A stretch of 64,000 nt of DNA from Escherichia coli (lineage in GTDB: Bacteria > Pseudomonadota > Gammaproteobacteria > Enterobacterales > Enterobacteriaceae), in assembly GCF_016903815.1 (NCBI RefSeq), contig NZ_CP069974.1; one strand, written 5' to 3'. Shown here in pieces: positions 25,255 through 51,600 of this stretch. The first letter of the stretch is position 1. Every line of letters begins with the position of its first letter. Position numbers and translations under genes: made by a program. Under the pieces are notes generated by a model that ran no database searches, was not told the DNA's origin, and saw nothing but the letters and a program-made list of their open reading frames with translations.

Positions 25255-28206
25255 TTGAGTTTCGGGAGCCGCGGTTTTGACGTTTTGCGGGGACCTGCCT
25301 TTTGTTCCCTCCGGTATTCACCATCACCTTTTTGAGAACCTTCGCCGCAAGGGGCATCACTGCCACGGACGGAAACGACTGTCCGGGGGCAGACCGCAAA
25401 AGTTTTTGCCTGCTTCTGGGCAAAAAGTTTTGCGGGATGTGCATTTCACCCCTGGACTGGCGGAGACGGTTGTGGCTGTCTTTGCCCCCGGCGACAGGGG
25501 CTTAAACAGGTGAATGGCACCGGACAGAACAACGGGCAGGGACCCGCCGCAACGACGTGAAGCGCGGTTTGCGAAACGGCGTTGCCCCTTACATCCCGGC
25601 GGTCTTTTGCCGGGATGCCAGGAGCGCAGGCCACGGCGCGACAGAGGCGGCGCGACCGGAACGGTCGCTGCAAGCCAGGGGTTTTCACGCATCGGACCGT
25701 AGCGACAGCCCGAAACCGCGCCAGCGGGTTCGGCGGAGACTGGCAGGTGCGCCAGCAGCTGCCTGTCGGAGTCGGGCCTGACGACCGGATGCCGCCAGGC
25801 AGCCGGGAGCCGAAGGTGCGCGTGCGACAGGAAGTCGCTTAACGTATTGTTTTACATTGATAAAACCAGCTATCCCATTAGCTGTAGCCTACCGGGACAG
25901 GCGTTGCCGGCAACGGCGGGGTCTGAAGCTCCCGGGACAACGAGAGCCGGGCGTCAGCCCGGGTAATGCCCCGTGAGGGGCTTTACCTTGCTGCAAGCAT
26001 CATGCGGCAGGAGAGCAAGGCTGGTCAGAAGGGTTAACACATGTGAACTGTTGATAAACACCGTTATCGGCAACAGGCCAAAGATGCTGACAGGCCTGAA
26101 CCAAAAGGTACGGGGTCCGGTTGCTACCTCGCGCACAGGGAGCACATGGGCGCAGAGACCCCCGGTGAAGAGACAGAACCCGCCCTGACCCTCTGTATGT
26201 TAAGCGGAACCTGGTAAACCCGTATCGCTGCCTCACAGGCAGGTGAACCGCAAGGAACACTGTTAGCGGTGCGGGCATAGGAGGACGGAAAAAGCGAATG
26301 CCCGGCTGTAATAACCGGGATACGGGGCAGGTTCCCCGACGCGAAAGCGGGCAGACTTCCGTCTGGTCTTTAATTGCATGAAAAGCTGTAAAGCAGTCAA
26401 AAGGATATCAGCGAGATGAATACACACATCAGTGTGTCCACGATACCCCACCCGACAGGCTGGCACACCATAAACTGGAAAGCATGCCATGCCCGGGTGC
26501 GAAAGCTACAGTTACGGATTGCAAAGGCAACCCGACAGCAACAATGGCGGCAGGTCAGAGAACTACAGCGCATCCTCACCCGCTCATTCTCCGGCAAAGC
26601 CGTGGCTGTCAGGCGTGTAACTGAAAATACCGGTAAAAGGACACCCGGTATTGACGGAAAAATATGGCACACACCGAAGGAGAAATGGGAAGGAATATGC
26701 AGCCTGAATCTGTGTGGTTACAGGCCACAGCCACTACGGCGAATACATATCCCAAAATCAAACGGCAAAACGCGACCGCTGGGCATACCCACAATGAGGG
26801 ACCGGGCCATGCAGGCACTGTGGCTGCTGGCTCTGGAACCCGTATCCGAGACCACTGCTGACCATAACAGCTATGGTTTCAGACCAATGCGCAGCACGCA
26901 TGACGCCATTGAGTCCATTTTTCTGCGGATGAGCCAGAAAGTATCGCCCAAATGGATACTGGAGGGCGATATTAAAGGGTGCTTCGATAACATCAGCCAT
27001 GACTGGCTGCTTTCCCATATTCCGATGGACAGGAGACTGCTTAAAAAATGGTTGAAAGCAGGTTACATGGAAAGAGGCGTGTTTAACCATACGAACAGCG
27101 GGACACCGCAGGGAGGCATCATATCCCCTGTTCTCGCCAACATGGCTCTGGACGGACTGGAGAAGGAACTGATGCAAACGTTCAGGAAAAGTGGTTATCA
27201 CAGTGCAAAGCACCAGGTGAATTATGTGAGATATGCTGATGATTTCATCTGTTCAGGCAGCTCCCGTGAATTGCTGGAAAATGAGGTCAGACCACTGATT
27301 GCAGCTTTCATGCGCGAACGAGGGCTGGAACTGTCGGAAGAAAAAACAGCGATCACACATATAGATAAAGGCTTCGACTTTTTAGGGCAGAACGTCAGGA
27401 AGTACAACGGTAAAATGCTGATTAAACCGTCGAAGAAAAACCTGAAGAACTTCCTCTGTAAAGTCAGAGAAATAATTAAACGCAATCCGACGCTCCCGGC
27501 ATGGAAACTGATAGGCCAGCTAAACCCGGTGATCCGGGGATGGGCTACCTATCACCGACACGTCGTGGCGAAAGAAACATTTAATTATGTCGACACCCAA
27601 ATCTGGCGAGCTATATGGCGATGGTGTGTAAGACGGCATCCCCGGAAAGGATTGCGGTGGATCGCCGGACGATACTTCTCCTTTGAAGGCAGGCGCTGGA
27701 TCTTTAAAGCCATAACCCCGGAAGGGAAAATTCTGACACTCTTCCGGGCAATGGAAACACCGATAAAGCGCCATATAAAAATCAAAGGCGAAGCAACACC
27801 ATACACCCCCGGAATGGAAATCTACTTTGAACGTCGTCTGGATCTAATCTGGAAAGGCAAATCAAAGAAGATGAAGACAGTAGTTCAACTCTGGAAGAGG
27901 CAGGGGAAACACTGTCCGCAGTGCGGACAACTCATAACCAACCAGACCGGATGGAATATACATCACCGGATCAGGAAAGTTATGGGCGGCAGTGACGAAC
28001 TGACCAATCTCGAGTTGTTACATCCGAACTGCCACCGACAGTTACACAGCAGGGAAGCCGGTGCTCACCGAAAGCACTTATAAAGGCTTGAGCGGAGTGC
28101 GGGGAAACTCGCACGCTCCGTTCTTAGGGGGCGGCGGCGCAGCAATGTGCCGCTGCTACCCGACCCGGCAGACAGGACAACACTGCAGTAGTCAGAATCA
28201 GAGCAG
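25255..28206 (+). mobile_element. Group II intron, copy A (RT/maturase with HNH endonuclease)
   Basis: Intron-encoded protein ORF plus domain V hairpin GAGCGGAGTGCGGGGAAACTCGCACGCTCCGTTC at 28093-28126; ends approximate (5' start lacks canonical GUGYG, 3' end between 28164 and 28206). Confidence 0.75.
26416..28083 (+). CDS. Group II intron-encoded reverse transcriptase/maturase/HNH endonuclease (555 aa)
   Basis: RT motifs incl. YVRYADDF, maturase X region, C-terminal CPQCG...HH HNH. Confidence 0.9.
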   Translation: MNTHISVSTIPHPTGWHTINWKACHARVRKLQLRIAKATRQQQWRQVRELQRILTRSFSGKAVAVRRVTENTGKRTPGIDGKIWHTPKEKWEGICSLNLCGYRPQPLRRIHIPKSNGKTRPLGIPTMRDRAMQALWLLALEPVSETTADHNSYGFRPMRSTHDAIESIFLRMSQKVSPKWILEGDIKGCFDNISHDWLLSHIPMDRRLLKKWLKAGYMERGVFNHTNSGTPQGGIISPVLANMALDGLEKELMQTFRKSGYHSAKHQVNYVRYADDFICSGSSRELLENEVRPLIAAFMRERGLELSEEKTAITHIDKGFDFLGQNVRKYNGKMLIKPSKKNLKNFLCKVREIIKRNPTLPAWKLIGQLNPVIRGWATYHRHVVAKETFNYVDTQIWRAIWRWCVRRHPRKGLRWIAGRYFSFEGRRWIFKAITPEGKILTLFRAMETPIKRHIKIKGEATPYTPGMEIYFERRLDLIWKGKSKKMKTVVQLWKRQGKHCPQCGQLITNQTGWNIHHRIRKVMGGSDELTNLELLHPNCHRQLHSREAGAHRKHL

Positions 28207-28477
28207 GAAGAAAAAGAGAATAATCACAGGGAAGGTGATGTGATTTCTGACAGGCCATAACCAGAGAAGGCGGGGGAAAAGAACGGGCGCCGCAGGCGCG
28301 CGTTCATCCCCGTTCCTGAAGGGAAACGACCTTCCTGAAGTCAGGTTGTTCATGCCCGTACAACATCAGCAAGGAGAAAGGGGCTACCGGCGAACCAGCA
28401 GCCCCTTTATAAAGGCGCTTCAGTAGTCAGACCAGCATCAGTCCTGAAAAGGCGGGCCTGCGCCCGCCTCCAGGTTG

Positions 28478-28636
28478 CTACTTACCGGATTCGTAAGCCA
28501 TGAAAGCCGCCACCTCTCTGTGTCCGTCTCTGTAACGAATCTCGCACAGCGATTTTCGTGTCAGATAAGTGAATATCAACAGTGTGAGACACACGATCAA
28601 CACACACCAGACAAGGGAACTTCGTGGTAGTTTCAT
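28478..28636 (-). CDS. hok: Hok-family membrane toxin (hok/sok or flm type I toxin-antitoxin)
   Basis: 52 aa [52 protein letters not shown]. Confidence 0.9.
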
Positions 28637-28742
28637 GGCCTTCTTCTCCTTGCGCAAAGCGCGGTAAGAGGCTATCCTGATGTGGACTAGACATAGGGAT
28701 GCCTCGTGGTGGTTAATGTACTGACCCCAAAAAGTTGGACAG

Positions 28743-29594
28743 TTAAACACGAGGCATATAGGTCTGATTCCGATATTCAATTGGAGTCAGACCTTTTAAT
28801 TTCAGGCTAATTCTTCTGCTGTTGTAGTATTCAATATATTCCGTAACAGCATCCTTCAGTTCGCTTATATTACTGAACTCATCAAGATAAAAACACTCCG
28901 ACTTTAAGGTTCCAAAGAAACACTCCACCACAGCATTATCCAGACAATTGCCTTTTCTGGACATGCTTTGTTTAATACCATGTTCTTTAAGGATATTTTG
29001 ATATCTTCTCATACGATACTGCCATCCCTGGTCAGAGTGCAGAACAGGATGCTCGTGAGGATTAAGCTTTTTGAATGCCTGATCGAGCATATTCTCAACC
29101 ATGTTCATCACTGGTCTTTCCGAAAGGCTGTAAGAAATAACTTCGTTGTTGAAGAGATCTATTACTGGAGACAAATACAGCTTGCGCCCATTGACTGCAA
29201 ATTCAGTAACATCGGTAACCCACTTCTCGTTTGGCCGCGTAGCCTTGAAATCTCTTTGGAGAACATTAGGGGCGGTTTGCCCTACCTCTCCTCTGTAAGA
29301 GCGGTATCGCTTGACCTTAATCGCTGCTTTAAGTGAGAGGGTTCCCATCAGGCGCTGAACAGCTTTATGGTTAATCTGTTTCCCTTCTCGATGAAGAGAC
29401 AGCGTTACCCTACGGTATCCGTATCGGCCTCTATTCTCGTGATAAATCTCACTAATACGCTTTTTAACGTCCGCATACTTGTCAGGCTTGCTGAGAGCCT
29501 TTAGATGATAATAAAACGTACTGCGCGGTATCTCCGCAGCCCTGAGAAGCTCATCAAGAGGATAAAACTGCCTTAGCTCGTTGAGTACTTTCAC
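28743..29594 (-). CDS. insK: IS150 OrfB (DDE catalytic domain)
   Basis: 283-aa ORF. Confidence 0.8.
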
Positions 29595-30112
29595 TTTTTC
29601 GTGGGATGAGCTAAGGCTTTCAGCTTTTTTAGATACATAAGCCGCGTTTCAAGAAATCGAACTTGCCTTTCAAGATCCTCAATGCGTCGGTCTTTTGACA
29701 GCTCCAATGCTGATGCCGCTTTTTCTGGATCAACTGATATTGCAATGTTTCTTTTGGTGCCAATCTTGAGCGCGCGTAAACCAGCTTCTCCGCGCTCTTC
29801 ATAGACCTTCAGCCACCTGGCTACAGAACCACTACCAGCAAGCATAAAGTGAGCAGCAGCCTGATTAAGGGACATGTGCTGCTCGATCACAGCTTTCACG
29901 ACCTTAATACGCAACTCTGGATCAGCACTAACGCCTTTAGGTTTGGGAATTAAACCTTTTTCTCCATGTTTTTCATAGAGGGCAACCCATGTCCTGACCT
30001 GGGTTCGGGGGACACCAAAACGTGCCGAGATGATCCTGTAACCATCATCAGTTGTGAAGTAGTGATTCACGACTTCAAGGCGCTTTTCAAAAGGGTATTT
30101 TGGCTTTGACAT
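29591..30112 (-). CDS. insJ: IS150 OrfA (HTH)
   Basis: 173-aa ORF. Confidence 0.8.
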   Translation of the reverse strand: MSKPKYPFEKRLEVVNHYFTTDDGYRIISARFGVPRTQVRTWVALYEKHGEKGLIPKPKGVSADPELRIKVVKAVIEQHMSLNQAAAHFMLAGSGSVARWLKVYEERGEAGLRALKIGTKRNIAISVDPEKAASALELSKDRRIEDLERQVRFLETRLMYLKKLKALAHPTKK

Positions 30113-30271
30113 ATTAGGGGCTATTCCATTTCATCGTCCAACAAAATGGGTGCAGTACAAGCGCCGGGCACATCATAGCCCATATACCTGCACGCTGACC
30201 ACACTCACTTTCCCTGAAAATAATCCGCTCATTCAGACCGTTCACGGGAAATCCGTGTGATTGTTGCCGCA

Positions 30272-30991
30272 TCACGCTGCCTCCCGGAGTTTGTTCGGCA
30301 CCATCCACCGCTCCATCTCACGAACAGCATGACCGACCACCCTTGCCGCCATACCAGCCTCTGCGATGACCTGCCAGAATGGCATATCCTGCCACTGCCA
30401 GCGTTCCATTCCGGCCAGTGACGGAAAACGCTCGCCCCACTGCCAGAACAGGGTTTCCAGGTCATGCTCTGCCACCCGGTCACTCCAGCGTGCATGCCAG
30501 CTTCCGACTGTTTCCGGCGAATGGAATGCCAGTTCGATTTCAGCCTGAGCGACCAGCGCCTGGTACGCACGGGCTTTCTGCTCTGCCTCCCTCGCCTGCT
30601 GGCGGCTGTACTTCTGCATGACCAGCGCGGATTTATGGCGACTGCGTTCCCTGACACGAAACCGCACCGACGGGAACAAGCGCTCTGCTGCATCACCGGG
30701 AAGGGGAAGGAGGCAGACCTCGCCCTGTGTTTCAATCAGCACATCGATGGCATACAGCCACTGAAGACGGTTGCCGTGCAGTTCTTCTGCGGTCAGGGAC
30801 GGCATGAAAAATCGCAGGTCAGACAGCGATATCCTGCGGCTTCCGTTCAGACAGCGGAAAAACGCCCCCGCATACGGATATTCAGCCAGCGTGTTACCCT
30901 GATGGCGGCGTTTTTCGGTCTCCGCCACCGCCCGCCATGCGGCCTGTTGCTCTGTGCTGAGAGGAACCAGTGCCTGTGAACGTGCGCTCAT
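30272..30991 (-). CDS. psiA: PsiA (plasmid SOS inhibition)
   Basis: 239-aa ORF, synteny with psiB. Confidence 0.85.
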
Positions 30992-31425
30992 GCCTGACCT
31001 CCTTCCGCCATCAGGATATGGATGATGTCACTGACGCTGTACCCCTGCGCGTCCAGTGACGCCGCCAGTGCCAGTGAATGGCTGACGGCTTCCGGTGCAA
31101 ACCGCCGCTGTACCTGAACCACCGCAAACGGCTCACCACCGGCATTCACCAGAACCAGCACCCAGACCTGAGAGACATCGCCCGGTGAACATAACGCCAG
31201 GTGGAAACGTTCGTGGGCTGGCGTGAAACGAACCTGGACGGGGAAAAAGCCCCCGAACTCACTGCCATACTCGCCATTCATCATCCAGTTGTCCGGCGCA
31301 TCCAGTTCCCGCATCACGGCGTGTGTCAGCTCACGACGTTCATCACTTCCGGCTGCCCGGATATCTTCATATTCCTGTGCGCTCATGGTCTGTAATACAT
31401 TCAGGGTCAGTTCAGTTTTCATCAC
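30988..31425 (-). CDS. psiB: PsiB (RecA/SOS inhibitor)
   Basis: 145 aa [41 protein letters not shown]... Confidence 0.9.
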
Positions 31426-33500: not shown

Positions 33501-36997
<3,497 letters not shown>

Positions 36998-37039: not shown

Positions 37040-39991
37040 TTGAGTTTCGGGAGCCGCGGTTTTGACGTTTTGCGGGGACCTGCCTTTTGTTCCCTCCGGT
37101 ATTCACCATCACCTTTTTGAGAACCTTCGCCGCATGGGGCATCACTGCCACGGACGGAAACGACTGTCCGGGGGCAGACCGCAAAAGTTTTTGCCTGCTT
37201 CTGGGCAAAAAGTTTTGCGGGATGTGCATTTCACCCCTGGACTGGCGGAGACGGTTGTGGCTGTCTTTGCCCCCGGCGACAGGGGCTTAAACAGGTGAAT
37301 GGCACCGGACAGAACAACGGGCAGGGACCCGCCGCAACGACGTGAAGCGCGGTTTGCGAAACGGCGTTGCCCCTTACATCCCGGCGGTCTTTTGCCGGGA
37401 TGCCAGGAGCGCAGGCCACGGCGCGACAGAGGCGGCGCGACCGGAACGGTCGCTGCAAGCCAGGGGTTTTCACGCATCGGACCGTAGCGACAGCCCGAAA
37501 CCGCGCCAGCGGGTTCGGCGGAGACTGGCAGGTGCGCCAGCAGCTGCCTGTCGGAGTCGGGCCTGACGACCGGATGCCGCCAGGCAGCCGGGAGCCGAAG
37601 GTGCGCGTGCGACAGGAAGTCGCTTAACGTATTGTTTTACATTGATAAAACCAGCTATCCCATTAGCTGTAGCCTACCGGGACAGGCGTTGCCGGCAACG
37701 GCGGGGTCTGAAGCTCCCGGGACAACGAGAGCCGGGCGTCAGCCCGGGTAATGCCCCGTGAGGGGCTTTACCTTGCTGCAAGCATCATGCGGCAGGAGAG
37801 CAAGGCTGGTCAGAAGGGTTAACACATGTGAACTGTTGATAAACACCGTTATCGGCAACAGGCCAAAGATGCTGACAGGCCTGAACCAAAAGGTACGGGG
37901 TCCGGTTGCTACCTCGCGCACAGGGAGCACATGGGCGCAGAGACCCCCGGTGAAGAGACAGAACCCGCCCTGACCCTCTGTATGTTAAGCGGAACCTGGT
38001 AAACCCGTATCGCTGCCTCACAGGCAGGTGAACCGCAAGGAACACTGTTAGCGGTGCGGGCATAGGAGGACGGAAAAAGCGAATGCCCGGCTGTAATAAC
38101 CGGGATACGGGGCAGGTTCCCCGACGCGAAAGCGGGCAGACTTCCGTCTGGTCTTTAATTGCATGAAAAGCTGTAAAGCAGTCAAAAGGATATCAGCGAG
38201 ATGAATACACACATCAGTGTGTCCACGATACCCCACCCGACAGGCTGGCACACCATAAACTGGAAAGCATGCCATGCCCGGGTGCGAAAGCTACAGTTAC
38301 GGATTGCAAAGGCAACCCGACAGCAACAATGGCGGCAGGTCAGAGAACTACAGCGCATCCTCACCCGCTCATTCTCCGGCAAAGCCGTGGCTGTCAGGCG
38401 TGTAACTGAAAATACCGGTAAAAGGACACCCGGTATTGACGGAAAAATATGGCACACACCGAAGGAGAAATGGGAAGGAATATGCAGCCTGAATCTGTGT
38501 GGTTACAGGCCACAGCCACTACGGCGAATACATATCCCAAAATCAAACGGCAAAACGCGACCGCTGGGCATACCCACAATGAGGGACCGGGCCATGCAGG
38601 CACTGTGGCTGCTGGCTCTGGAACCCGTATCCGAGACCACTGCTGACCATAACAGCTATGGTTTCAGACCAATGCGCAGCACGCATGACGCCATTGAGTC
38701 CATTTTTCTGCGGATGAGCCAGAAAGTATCGCCCAAATGGATACTGGAGGGCGATATTAAAGGGTGCTTCGATAACATCAGCCATGACTGGCTGCTTTCC
38801 CATATTCCGATGGACAGGAGACTGCTTAAAAAATGGTTGAAAGCAGGTTACATGGAAAGAGGCGTGTTTAACCATACGAACAGCGGGACACCGCAGGGAG
38901 GCATCATATCCCCTGTTCTCGCCAACATGGCTCTGGACGGACTGGAGAAGGAACTGATGCAAACGTTCAGGAAAAGTGGTTATCACAGTGCAAAGCACCA
39001 GGTGAATTATGTGAGATATGCTGATGATTTCATCTGTTCAGGCAGCTCCCGTGAATTGCTGGAAAATGAGGTCAGACCACTGATTGCAGCTTTCATGCGC
39101 GAACGAGGGCTGGAACTGTCGGAAGAAAAAACAGCGATCACACATATAGATAAAGGCTTCGACTTTTTAGGGCAGAACGTCAGGAAGTACAACGGTAAAA
39201 TGCTGATTAAACCGTCGAAGAAAAACCTGAAGAACTTCCTCTGTAAAGTCAGAGAAATAATTAAACGCAATCCGACGCTCCCGGCATGGAAACTGATAGG
39301 CCAGCTAAACCCGGTGATCCGGGGATGGGCTACCTATCACCGACACGTCGTGGCGAAAGAAACATTTAATTATGTCGACACCCAAATCTGGCGAGCTATA
39401 TGGCGATGGTGTGTAAGACGGCATCCCCGGAAAGGATTGCGGTGGATCGCCGGACGATACTTCTCCTTTGAAGGCAGGCGCTGGATCTTTAAAGCCATAA
39501 CCCCGGAAGGGAAAATTCTGACACTCTTCCGGGCAATGGAAACACCGATAAAGCGCCATATAAAAATCAAAGGCGAAGCAACACCATACACCCCCGGAAT
39601 GGAAATCTACTTTGAACGTCGTCTGGATCTAATCTGGAAAGGCAAATCAAAGAAGATGAAGACAGTAGTTCAACTCTGGAAGAGGCAGGGGAAACACTGT
39701 CCGCAGTGCGGACAACTCATAACCAACCAGACCGGATGGAATATACATCACCGGATCAGGAAAGTTATGGGCGGCAGTGACGAACTGACCAATCTCGAGT
39801 TGTTACATCCGAACTGCCACCGACAGTTACACAGCAGGGAAGCCGGTGCTCACCGAAAGCACTTATAAAGGCTTGAGCGGAGTGCGGGGAAACTCGCACG
39901 CTCCGTTCTTAGGGGGCGGCGGCGCAGCAATGTGCCGCTGCTACCCGACCCGGCAGACAGGACAACACTGCAGTAGTCAGAATCAGAGCAG
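37040..39991 (+). mobile_element. Group II intron, copy B (identical protein to copy A)
   Basis: Same offsets as copy A (+11785); immediately upstream of and divergent from ssb. Confidence 0.75.
38201..39868 (+). CDS. Group II intron RT/maturase/HNH (copy B)
   Basis: 555 aa, identical to copy A. Confidence 0.9.
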   Translation: MNTHISVSTIPHPTGWHTINWKACHARVRKLQLRIAKATRQQQWRQVRELQRILTRSFSGKAVAVRRVTENTGKRTPGIDGKIWHTPKEKWEGICSLNLCGYRPQPLRRIHIPKSNGKTRPLGIPTMRDRAMQALWLLALEPVSETTADHNSYGFRPMRSTHDAIESIFLRMSQKVSPKWILEGDIKGCFDNISHDWLLSHIPMDRRLLKKWLKAGYMERGVFNHTNSGTPQGGIISPVLANMALDGLEKELMQTFRKSGYHSAKHQVNYVRYADDFICSGSSRELLENEVRPLIAAFMRERGLELSEEKTAITHIDKGFDFLGQNVRKYNGKMLIKPSKKNLKNFLCKVREIIKRNPTLPAWKLIGQLNPVIRGWATYHRHVVAKETFNYVDTQIWRAIWRWCVRRHPRKGLRWIAGRYFSFEGRRWIFKAITPEGKILTLFRAMETPIKRHIKIKGEATPYTPGMEIYFERRLDLIWKGKSKKMKTVVQLWKRQGKHCPQCGQLITNQTGWNIHHRIRKVMGGSDELTNLELLHPNCHRQLHSREAGAHRKHL

Positions 39992-42713: not shown

Positions 42714-45662
42714 TTGAGTTTCGGGAGCCGCGGTTTTGACGTTTCGCGGGAACCTGCTGCTGTATACCCTGTGGTATGAACTTCACCCGTTTGAGAACCT
42801 TCGCCGCAAGGGGCATCACTGCCACGGCCTGACGCACCTGTCCTGGGCAGAACGCAAAATTTTTTACCGGGTTTTGGGTAAAAAATTTTGTGGGCTGTTC
42901 ATTTACCCTGGACAGTCAGTGCGGCAGGTTGTGGCTGTATCAGCCCCAGGCGACAGGGACTCATACGGGTGTGTGGCACCGGCAGGCAATGAGCAGGGAC
43001 CCGCCGCAACGACGGAGAGCGCGTGCGCGAAACGGCGTTGCCCCTTACATCCCGGCGGCCTTTTGCCGGGATGCCGGGAGCGCAGGCCACGGCGCGACAA
43101 GGGTGGCGCGACCGGAACGGTCGCTGCAAGCCCGGGGTTTTCACGCATCGGACCGTAGCGACAGCCCGAAACCGCGCCAGCGGGTTCGGCGGAGACTGGC
43201 GGGTGCGCCAGCAGCTGCCTGTCGGAGTCGGGCCTGACGACCGGATGCCGCCAGGCAGCCGGGAGCCGAAGGTGCGCGTGCGACAGGAAGTCGCTTAACG
43301 TATTGTTTTACATTGATAAAACCAGCTATCCCATTAGCTGTAGCCTACCGGGACAGGCGTTGCCGGCAACGGCGGGGTCTGAAGCTCCCGGGACAACGAG
43401 AGCCGGGCGTCAGCCCGGGTAATGCCCCGTGAGGGGCTTTACCTTGCTGCAAGCATCATGCGGCAGGAGAGCAAGGCTGGTCAGAAGGGTTAACACATGT
43501 GAACTGTTGATAAACACCGTTATCGGCAACAGGCCAAAGATGCTGACAGGCCTGAACCAAAAGGTACGGGGTCCGGTTGCTACCTCGCGCACAGGGAGCA
43601 CATGGGCGCAGAGACCCCCGGTGAAGAGACAGAACCCGCCCTGACCCTCTGTATGTTAAGCGGAACCTGGTAAACCCGTATCGCTGCCTCACAGGCAGGT
43701 GAACCGCAAGGAACACTGTTAGCGGTGCGGGCATAGGAGGACGGAAAAAGCGAATGCCCGGCTGTAATAACCGGGATACGGGGCAGGTTCCCCGACGCGA
43801 AAGCGGGCAGACTTCCGTCTGGTCTTTAATTGCATGAAAAGCTGTAAAGCAGTCAAAAGGATATCAGCGAGATGAATACACACATCAGTGTGTCCACGAT
43901 ACCCCACCCGACAGGCTGGCACACCATAAACTGGAAAGCATGCCATGCCCGGGTGCGAAAGCTACAGTTACGGATTGCAAAGGCAACCCGACAGCAACAA
44001 TGGCGGCAGGTCAGAGAACTACAGCGCATCCTCACCCGCTCATTCTCCGGCAAAGCCGTGGCTGTCAGGCGTGTAACTGAAAATACCGGTAAAAGGACAC
44101 CCGGTATTGACGGAAAAATATGGCACACACCGAAGGAGAAATGGGAAGGAATATGCAGCCTGAATCTGTGTGGTTACAGGCCACAGCCACTACGGCGAAT
44201 ACATATCCCAAAATCAAACGGCAAAACGCGACCGCTGGGCATACCCACAATGAGGGACCGGGCCATGCAGGCACTGTGGCTGCTGGCTCTGGAACCCGTA
44301 TCCGAGACCACTGCTGACCATAACAGCTATGGTTTCAGACCAATGCGCAGCACGCATGACGCCATTGAGTCCATTTTTCTGCGGATGAGCCAGAAAGTAT
44401 CGCCCAAATGGATACTGGAGGGCGATATTAAAGGGTGCTTCGATAACATCAGCCATGACTGGCTGCTTTCCCATATTCCGATGGACAGGAGACTGCTTAA
44501 AAAATGGTTGAAAGCAGGTTACATGGAAAGAGGCGTGTTTAACCATACGAACAGCGGGACACCGCAGGAAGGCATCATATCCCCTGTTCTCGCCAACATG
44601 GCTCTGGACGGACTGGAGAAGGAACTGATGCAAACGTTCAGGAAAAGTGGTTATCACAGTGCAAAGCACCAGGTGAATTATGTGAGATATGCTGATGATT
44701 TCATCTGTTCAGGCAGCTCCCGTGAATTGCTGGAAAATGAGGTCAGACCACTGATTGCAGCTTTCATGCGCGAACGAGGGCTGGAACTGTCGGAAGAAAA
44801 AACAGCGATCACACATATAGATAAAGGCTTCGACTTTTTAGGGCAGAACGTCAGGAAGTACAACGGTAAAATGCTGATTAAACCGTCGAAGAAAAACCTG
44901 AAGAACTTCCTCTGTAAAGTCAGAGAAATAATTAAACGCAATCCGACGCTCCCGGCATGGAAACTGATAGGCCAGCTAAACCCGGTGATCCGGGGATGGG
45001 CTACCTATCACCGACACGTCGTGGCGAAAGAAACATTTAATTATGTCGACACCCAAATCTGGCGAGCTATATGGCGATGGTGTGTAAGACGGCATCCCCG
45101 GAAAGGATTGCGGTGGATCGCCGGACGATACTTCTCCTTTGAAGGCAGGCGCTGGATCTTTAAAGCCATAACCCCGGAAGGGAAAATTCTGACACTCTTC
45201 CGGGCAATGGAAACACCGATAAAGCGCCATATAAAAATCAAAGGCGAAGCAACACCATACACCCCCGGAATGGAAATCTACTTTGAACGTCGTCTGGATC
45301 TAATCTGGAAAGGCAAATCAAAGAAGATGAAGACAGTAGTTCAACTCTGGAAGAGGCAGGGGAAACACTGTCCGCAGTGCGGACAACTCATAACCAACCA
45401 GACCGGATGGAATATACATCACCGGATCAGGAAAGTTATGGGCGGCAGTGACGAACTGACCAATCTCGAGTTGTTACATCCGAACTGCCACCGACAGTTA
45501 CACAGCAGGGAAGCCGGTGCTCACCGAAAGCACTTATAAAGGCTTGAGCGGAGTGCGGGGAAACTCGCACGCTCCGTTCTTAGGGGGCGGCGGCGCAGCA
45601 ATGTGCCGCTGCTACCCGACCCGGCAGACAGAACAACACTGCAGTAGTCAGAATCAGAGCAG
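42714..45662 (+). mobile_element. Group II intron, copy C (diverged 5' ~330 nt, 1 aa difference in protein)
   Basis: Same architecture; protein differs Q->E in GTPQ(G/E)GIISP. Confidence 0.75.
43872..45539 (+). CDS. Group II intron RT/maturase/HNH (copy C)
   Basis: 555 aa. Confidence 0.9.
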   Translation: MNTHISVSTIPHPTGWHTINWKACHARVRKLQLRIAKATRQQQWRQVRELQRILTRSFSGKAVAVRRVTENTGKRTPGIDGKIWHTPKEKWEGICSLNLCGYRPQPLRRIHIPKSNGKTRPLGIPTMRDRAMQALWLLALEPVSETTADHNSYGFRPMRSTHDAIESIFLRMSQKVSPKWILEGDIKGCFDNISHDWLLSHIPMDRRLLKKWLKAGYMERGVFNHTNSGTPQEGIISPVLANMALDGLEKELMQTFRKSGYHSAKHQVNYVRYADDFICSGSSRELLENEVRPLIAAFMRERGLELSEEKTAITHIDKGFDFLGQNVRKYNGKMLIKPSKKNLKNFLCKVREIIKRNPTLPAWKLIGQLNPVIRGWATYHRHVVAKETFNYVDTQIWRAIWRWCVRRHPRKGLRWIAGRYFSFEGRRWIFKAITPEGKILTLFRAMETPIKRHIKIKGEATPYTPGMEIYFERRLDLIWKGKSKKMKTVVQLWKRQGKHCPQCGQLITNQTGWNIHHRIRKVMGGSDELTNLELLHPNCHRQLHSREAGAHRKHL

Positions 45663-50888: not shown

Positions 50889-51209
50889 CTGTAACCGGGC
50901 GACCGCATACGAATGCAGGTGCGGCCCCGAAGCCGCAGCGCGTGGAGGAGGAACGACGAAACGTGACCGGGTGAGGAGGCCGGCGACAGCGACACACTTG
51001 CATCGGATGCAGCCCGGTTAACGTGCCGGCACGGCCTGGGTAACCAGGTATTTTGTCCACATAACCGTGCGCAAAATGTTGTGGATAAGCAGGACACAGC
51101 AGCAATCCACAGCAGGCATACAACCGCACACCGAGGTTACTCCGTTCTACAGGTTACGACGACATGTCAATACTTGCCCTTGACAGGCATTGATGGAATC
51201 GTAGTCTCA

Positions 51210-51600
51210 CGCTGATAGTCTGATCGACAATACAAGTGGGACCGTGGTCCCAGACCGATAATCAGACCGACAACACGAGTGGGATCGTGGTCCCAGACTA
51301 ATAATCAGACCGACGATACGAGTGGGACCGTGGTCCCAGACTAATAATCAGACCGACGATACGAGTGGGACCGTGGTCCCAGACTAATAATCAGACCGAC
51401 GATACGAGTGGGACCATGGTCCCAGACTAATAATCAGACCGACGATACGAGTGGGACCATGGTCCCAGACTAATAATCAGACCGACGATACGAGTGGGAC
51501 CGTGGTCCCAGACTAATAATCAGACCGACGATACGAGTGGGACCGTGGTCCCAGTCTGATTATCAGACCGACGATACAAGTGGAACAGTGGGCCCAGAGA
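51210..51600. repeat. sopC: sopC centromere: 43-bp direct repeats each with TGGGACCGTGGTCCCA inverted motif (8 good units plus 1 degenerate)
   Basis: Period 43 bp from 51236; downstream of sopB. Confidence 0.9.

Follow-up and report, generated by a model that had tools for sequence, protein, structure and literature searches.

Does a hok toxin gene still belong to a working addiction module when a complete IS150 ends just upstream of its start codon? The question is raised by a stretch of 64,000 nt of Escherichia coli DNA (RefSeq assembly GCF_016903815.1, contig NZ_CP069974.1), hereafter the window, for which a first, sequence-only reading had proposed that IS150 uncoupled the toxin from its promoter and from the sok/mok control region. 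We compared the locus with intact plasmid loci and with the published map of the R1 hok mRNA. Judged by its sequence, it is an R1-type hok/mok/sok post-segregational killing locus in the leading region of an IncF plasmid, adjoining psiA. The reading we favour, at a probability of about 75%, is that IS150 has disrupted this locus, which most likely no longer works as an addiction module.

The toxin side of the locus holds the following features:

28478-28636, minus strand: hok ORF, 52 aa, intact (Pfam PF01848 HOK_GEF, 76.5 bits)
28482-28694, minus strand: mok ORF, 70 aa, intact, overlapping hok (Pfam DUF5431, full length, 134.8 bits)
28637-28716, minus strand: retained hok leader, +94 to +173 of the mRNA, from alignment with the intact loci L001 and L002
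28702-28705, minus strand: mok Shine-Dalgarno (SD) sequence GAGG, +105 to +108, from alignment with the intact loci and the R1 numbering
28380-28477, minus strand: hok 3' UTR with downstream hairpins, unchanged, the same as in intact locus L001
28414-28420, minus strand: fbi-type element AAGCGCC, complement of the mRNA 5' end GGCGCUU (complementarity; PMC1635323 and PMC9841398)

In the R1 numbering (PMC9841398), the mok AUG at 28694 is position +116 of the hok mRNA. Position 28517 is the sole difference between the window and L001 over 28300-28700, and none of the IS150 alleles that we examined shows damage in hok, mok, the mok SD or any part of the 3' UTR. The 3' fold-back (fbi) element is also present, its 5' partner being now displaced. 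The Hok and Mok ORFs, mok SD, promoters and 3' UTR of R1 hok/sok (parB) and of the psiA-linked IncF loci are also those of the window; compared with R1, the window carries IS150 in place of +7 to +93, its promoter is parted from the genes and sok is cut after 33 nt. As a separate observation, the change at 28517 turns AGG into AGA in hok, which is synonymous (Arg), and Gly into Arg in the mok frame. It is shared by those records that match the window at 100% identity over 28300-30450, and is absent from L001 and L002 and from the examples examined of the alleles A, B, C, D and E described below.

The insertion element is made up as follows:

28717-30159, minus strand: complete IS150, 1443 bp, TGTACTG termini, with IRR at 28717 and IRL at 30159
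29591-30112, minus strand: insJ (orfA)
28743-29594, minus strand: insK (orfB)

This copy is identical to an IS150 of MG1655 (1443/1443, 0 differences), with imperfect terminal inverted repeats that start with TGTACTG and with overlapping insJ and insK, for which RefSeq annotates a programmed frameshift. Exactly 80 nt (28637-28716) lie between the hok ATG and the end of the element. The coordinates of the earlier reading, an intact hok ORF and an IS150 end at 28717, 80 bp upstream of it, are therefore correct; the end that it called left is in fact the right one (IRR), downstream of insK and nearest to hok, the transposase genes and hok being co-oriented.

The junctions were then compared with those of intact loci. 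In the sense of hok the flanks read ..GGCGCT / IS / TTAACC.., and no target-site duplication of the expected 3-4 bp is present, the bases next to the element being GCT and TTA. When the two flanks were joined into a query of 708 bp, intact loci in thousands of PLSDB plasmids covered it in 795 bp. Between the flanks, L001 and L002 both have 87 bp, TGAGGCTTTCTGCC...AATTTTCA, which are missing from the window, while the flanks themselves are 99.9% identical to intact plasmid loci and, besides 28517, the same as in L001 and L002. Taken from these alignments, the event is a replacement of 87 bp of leader by IS150 rather than a plain insertion; the earlier reading treated it as a simple insertion and overlooked both the lost leader and the missing duplication. 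The same 2151-bp arrangement recurs with 100% identity in many independent complete plasmids, which excludes an assembly artefact. More specifically, the exact junction occurs in 30 PLSDB records (plus 3 near-exact) and in 33 records from a set of 5426 complete RefSeq genomes of E. coli, where the allele is annotated just as a Hok-family toxin beside an IS150 transposase.

Where the borders of IS150 fall on the hok mRNA was determined from the R1 map, for which two further features are needed:

30172-30201, minus strand: hok promoter, intact, with -35 TGGTCA, 18 nt spacer and -10 TATGAT, from a promoter scan and matching the intact loci
30160-30165, minus strand: orphaned hok mRNA start GGCGCU, +1 to +6, abutting the IRL of IS150

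The R1 landmarks are the -10 box TATGAT at -12 to -7, which has been validated by mutation, G4/C5/T6, the anti-SD A70-C74, the mok SD with G105/A106, the mok AUG at 116-118 and the hok AUG at 174-176 (PMC9841398). All of them match the intact plasmid locus base for base. On this map +1 is 30165, +6 is 30160, the base that directly precedes IS150, and +94 is 28716, so that IS150 sits within the hok transcription unit, as had been proposed. An insertion upstream of the complete hok/sok unit, the outcome that was to overturn the earlier reading, is not what the alignment with intact loci gives. The toxin is indeed parted from its promoter, which lies beyond IS150, is cut off from +94 by the 1443 bp of the element and is no longer contiguous with the mok-hok transcript. 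This promoter now faces IRL, with the insJ ATG 53 nt downstream.

The absent segment, +7 to +93, held the partner of the tac element, the metastable hairpin and the ucb/anti-SD element around A70-U77, and the window accordingly lacks a complete 5' leader with tac and ucb/anti-SD elements. In R1, Hok is no longer produced when G4/C5/T6, A70 or C74 is substituted, and A106G, which perfects the stem between SD and anti-SD, blocks Hok translation (PMC9841398). The Rfam model RF01794 (hok-leader/sok; gathering score 59) scores 88.9 bits on the intact locus L001, 73.1 on allele A (L003) and 35.5 on the window, which matches it only in the retained half of the leader.

On the opposite strand, the antisense gene is reduced to the following:

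28650-28678, plus strand: TTGCGC (28650-28655), 17 nt spacer and TATCCT (28673-28678), read from the sequence, presumably the sok promoter
28684-28716, plus strand: truncated sok, starting near 28684, the first 33 of about 64 nt, fused to the IRR of IS150

In a locus of the R1 type, TTGCGC-17-TATCCT is presumably the sok promoter; with 8/12 consensus matches it stays under the threshold of the consensus scan. What is retained of sok is the 11-nt recognition tail and most of the 5' arm of the stem, while the loop, the 3' arm and the U-tail/terminator, the 3' 31 nt in all, fall within the missing 87 bp. The locus thus holds 33 nt in place of a complete antisense gene, Sok being an RNA of 64 nt in which a single-stranded 5' tail of 11 nt precedes a stem-loop (PMC1635323); RNA folding of the native sequence gives this same tail and stem-loop. 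The proposal that the toxin was uncoupled from its sok/mok region is only partly borne out: hok is still contiguous with the start codon and SD of mok, with the sok promoter and with the Sok target, and the damage to the control region consists of the lost leader (+7 to +93) and of the 3' 31 nt of sok.

The absence of a target duplication raised the question of how this allele arose. At least five IS150 alleles, every one of them co-oriented with hok, were found within the leader of about 100 bp by junction-specific searches of PLSDB that covered this orientation of the element; their duplications are given on the plus strand of the window:

Allele A (L003): duplication AGCG (4 bp, window plus strand), +3 to +6; complete leader; 65-68 PLSDB records
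Allele B (L004): no duplication; leader kept from about +38; one example seen
Allele C (L005, L007): duplication GAA, +90 to +92; one SNP in the IS; about 184 PLSDB records
Allele D (L006, L008): duplication TGG, +98 to +103; about 130-150 PLSDB records, an estimate from an evenly spaced sample by a query that Klebsiella IRR remnants match too
Allele E (L018): duplication TTA, +94 to +96; 11-16 PLSDB records
Window allele: no duplication; +7 to +93 lost; IRL junction of A and IRR junction of E

The IRL junction of the window is that of allele A, to whose IS the window copy is identical, and the IRR junction is that of allele E, in which four SNPs are found in the middle of the IS. Allele B has the IRL junction of A and is 35 bp shorter than A beside IRR, and allele C was also seen in 143 records among the 5426 RefSeq complete E. 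coli genomes. The true simple-insertion alleles (L003, L005, L006 and L018) differ in appearance from the window allele. In total, the alleles with IS150 in the leader amount to roughly 440 PLSDB records, about one tenth of the number (3911) in which the psiA-linked hok locus is uninterrupted; many of the 440 are IncF plasmids with multidrug resistance that were obtained from human isolates. No description of this plasmid series or of the duplication-less recombinant allele was found in the searchable literature.

Considering these junctions, the likeliest origin of the window allele would be a two-allele recombination, in which a second IS150 hit, or a co-resident allele, was followed by recombination between the two IS copies; alternatively, the resident IRR may have attacked the same hot spot, reusing the site of E. 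Either route would remove the 87 bp and leave no duplication, which would explain why none is seen here. We had also considered a random deletion of allele A adjacent to IRR, and gave it up after the allele E that had been predicted was sought and found. That IS150 entered a pre-existing DNA break in a single duplication-free event, by IS-mediated break repair, appears very unlikely to us. Such an event has a precedent in the LTEE, where IS150 moves are tied to large deletions and occur without target duplications (bioRxiv 10.1101/2024.06.02.596822), but both junctions of the window equal, to the base, those of separate simple-insertion alleles that bear duplications, a coincidence that is not expected from one break-repair event. 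Hardly credible is a plain insertion of IS150 that merely moved an intact hok/sok unit off its promoter: the complete element and the intact hok ORF would agree with it, but the target duplication is missing, 87 bp of the intact loci are gone and the alignment refutes it.

We also asked what RNAs the rearranged locus could yield. Two stretches of IS150 bear on this:

28748-28757, minus strand: AUGCCUCGUG, in the last insK codons (YMPRV-stop), perfect 10-nt complement of the mok SD region
28760-28794, plus strand: 15-bp hairpin followed by UUUUAAUUU, just inside IRR (terminator scan, inverted repeat)

The partner of AUGCCUCGUG is CACGAGGCAU at 28699-28708 (+102 to +111), and they pair with each other in the MFE fold of a read-through RNA as well as in its centroid fold. 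A complement of 10 nt or more was obtained in 12 of 5000 shuffles, in a test that was picked after the repeat had been noticed. This complementarity is absent from hokC, and considering that it is not conserved there, it is probably fortuitous, though it shapes the predicted folds. The hairpin at 28760-28794 is predicted to be terminator-like for transcripts coming from the sok promoter, and the chimeric RNA, Sok', is predicted to fold into a 5' tail, a 10-bp stem from the same complementarity, a 15-bp hairpin and a U-rich tract (z = -6.2). The promoter scan predicted no sigma-70-like promoter facing out of IRR. On the hok strand, no intrinsic terminator was predicted from the hok promoter to mok, the inside of IS150 included, and read-through from the hok promoter or from an IS150 promoter is therefore possible.

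The plasmid context of the locus was also considered, and the closest neighbours are:

30272-30991, minus strand: psiA, upstream neighbour in the leading region, from the annotation of homologous plasmids
30988-31425, minus strand: psiB, in the leading region beyond psiA

On the minus strand, the order is psiB, psiA, an intergenic stretch, IS150 and mok/hok. The maintenance functions ccdAB lie in the window at about 57 kb, and sopAB is annotated in a collinear plasmid. Tandem repeats of about 43 bp at 51194-51598, seen as staggered self-matches beside sopA/sopB, would fit the centromere of the F partition system, sopC. A group II intron of 2342 bp is present in three plus-strand copies (25822-28163, 37607-39948 and 43278-45619) that differ by 0-1 nt, with an RT ORF at 26416-28083 and Rfam matches to RF02012 and RF00029. 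All three copies are at one target, ..GAAGGTGCGC / CCCGGCAGAC.., each inside one of three leading-region repeats of about 590 bp, and pEcIMT16316, a plasmid that is otherwise collinear, has none of them. The end of the first copy is 314 bp away from hok on its downstream side, and the hok transcript is left untouched. A different group II intron RT/maturase (ltrA) lies downstream of ssb at about 34444-36345 on the minus strand, a position set by collinearity with 25787-27688 of L013.

How, then, would the broken locus behave? As the sequence shows, mok, hok and the 3' UTR are left without a promoter of their own; in the reading that we favour, the stable, end-paired, full-length hok mRNA could not be made, with the consequence that no reservoir of toxin mRNA would exist and no killing would follow plasmid loss. 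Any RNA reading through the 1.4-kb element into mok would have its SD locked by the perfect 10-bp pairing with IS150, and might still be targeted by the chimeric Sok-IS150 RNA. The loss of the locus would be tolerated since the plasmid presumably has other maintenance functions in ccdAB and sopAB. In the absence of Sok, R1 hok is lethal when expressed from its own promoter, and an allele with a truncated sok persists in the 30 PLSDB and 33 RefSeq records, which points to a hok gene that is silent or still repressed. In line with the first reading of this DNA, hok may be silenced or placed under IS-derived transcription.

The contrary view is that the module has been rewired and is alive, the hok promoter, the IS150 promoter or both reading through insJ-insK into mok-hok, while Sok', in which the Sok tail is joined to a stem derived from IS150 and to the IRR hairpin as terminator, represses Hok. 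Hok translation might then be coupled to that of the transposase, as the anti-SD at 28748-28757 overlaps the last insK codons (YMPRV-stop). We consider this unlikely. The missing hok-strand terminator within IS150 and the predicted fold of Sok' (tail, 10-bp stem, 15-bp hairpin and U-rich tract, at the z-score given above) would suit it, as would the intact hok and mok ORFs and 3' UTR of all alleles; undamaged hok, mok, SD and 3' UTR are expected from a recent inactivation and equally from continued use. The presence of the sok promoter, the recognition tail and the predicted surrogate stem and terminator is what would be expected if control were still needed, and the loss of ucb could in principle make a read-through RNA more translatable. 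Against a live module, the tac/ucb segment that the regulated switch requires is gone, and the perfect pairing of the SD resembles the A106G lock, which abolishes translation. The absence of the 10-nt complementarity from hokC speaks against a conserved design, the transcripts of IS3-family transposases are normally scarce, and the whole proposal is built from predictions.

A broken, most likely inactive locus also has counterparts at other hok loci. The hokA/sokA::IS150 and sokE::IS150 insertions are described in PMC11551753, which cites Pedersen and Gerdes (1999) for them: IS150 lies in sokA of MG1655 and in sokE of XL1-Blue and of more than 400 natural isolates. We confirmed the sokA insertion of MG1655 at the sequence level. 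As in the window, the same IS lies in the mok/sok leader at hokA/sokA and sokE and the toxin ORF is spared; these loci are chromosomal, whereas that of the window is plasmid-borne, and at hokA of K-12 IS150 is opposite to hok, unlike in the plasmid alleles. The K-12 hokA/sokA element (L012, MG1655 3720633-3722075) has no obvious target duplication, its flanks being ..GAGTA / IS / AACTT... Recurrent IS150 insertions beside hokC, hokE and mokB have been observed in experimental evolution (PMC5419217), and it is again the cis-regulatory leader that is hit. We compared hokC alone, the REL4536 coordinates for hokE and mokB not mapping onto the hok loci of REL606, and found that the hokC sites 16,972 and 16,989 of REL606 (E. 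coli B) lie within the sokC stem-loop, which is homologous to the stretch hit in the plasmid alleles D and C/E. The hok/sok genes have also been flagged as close to hotspots where mobile elements insert, both in E. coli and in K. pneumoniae (bioRxiv 10.1101/527788). In contrast to the plasmid allele studied here, PMC5419217 deals with chromosomal loci in plasmid-free strains and bioRxiv 10.1101/527788 with hotspot statistics only. Another element, IS186, lies downstream of K-12 hokC/gef and disrupts a regulatory element while sparing the ORF (PMC3562002); there the 3' fbi end is removed, whereas IS150 in the window removes the 5' leader and the linkage to the promoter. IS150 damage to chromosomal hok/sok loci is thus already published, and the window is an ordinary example of a documented phenomenon.

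Similar events were seen in Klebsiella. In the K. pneumoniae plasmid L010, ISKpn8, 94.7% identical to IS150, occupies the position homologous to that of allele D and is flanked by a TGG duplication, and the Klebsiella plasmids L009 and L011 have an IRR remnant of 26-45 bp at the allele-D junction. In the leaders of the hok homologues of L009 (2509-2555) and L011 there is no IS, and 26 bp are identical to the IRR tip of IS150/ISKpn8; next come a stretch that resembles IRR but has diverged, a hairpin resembling a bidirectional terminator, and a toxin-antitoxin pair of the GNAT/DUF1778 type. This arrangement, which is found in many Klebsiella plasmids, has the appearance of an IS insertion at the allele-D site that has since decayed. 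An attempt to explain the hotspot by the 10 nt that the mok SD region shares with the sequence close to IRR, the target acting as an IR-like surrogate end, was weakened by hokC, which is hit by IS150 in the homologous stretch but has CCCGAGGCCCCC there and no such motif, and also by the other orientation of IS150 at K-12 hokA.

A broader proposal would make the sok stem-loop a position-specific, orientation-biased landing site at which elements of the IS150 family insert, in E. coli and Klebsiella alike and on chromosomes as well as plasmids, and whose use yields a working fusion. As a joint claim this is quite improbable. If it were true, the hok promoter would drive the transposase genes, the anti-SD at the end of insK would couple Hok to transposase translation and the IRR hairpin would terminate an active, truncated Sok.

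In conclusion, returning to the locus as broken by IS150, the consequences reach beyond this plasmid. Surveys of addiction systems score hok/sok as present from the hok ORF (BLAST criteria in PMC10591226; inventories in PMC4398462 and PMC2887853), and the hok copies in the about 440 PLSDB plasmids with IS150 in the leader are probably non-functional. The allele series provides a natural data set on the frequent hits of IS150-family elements on hok leaders, whether these result from targeting or from selection.
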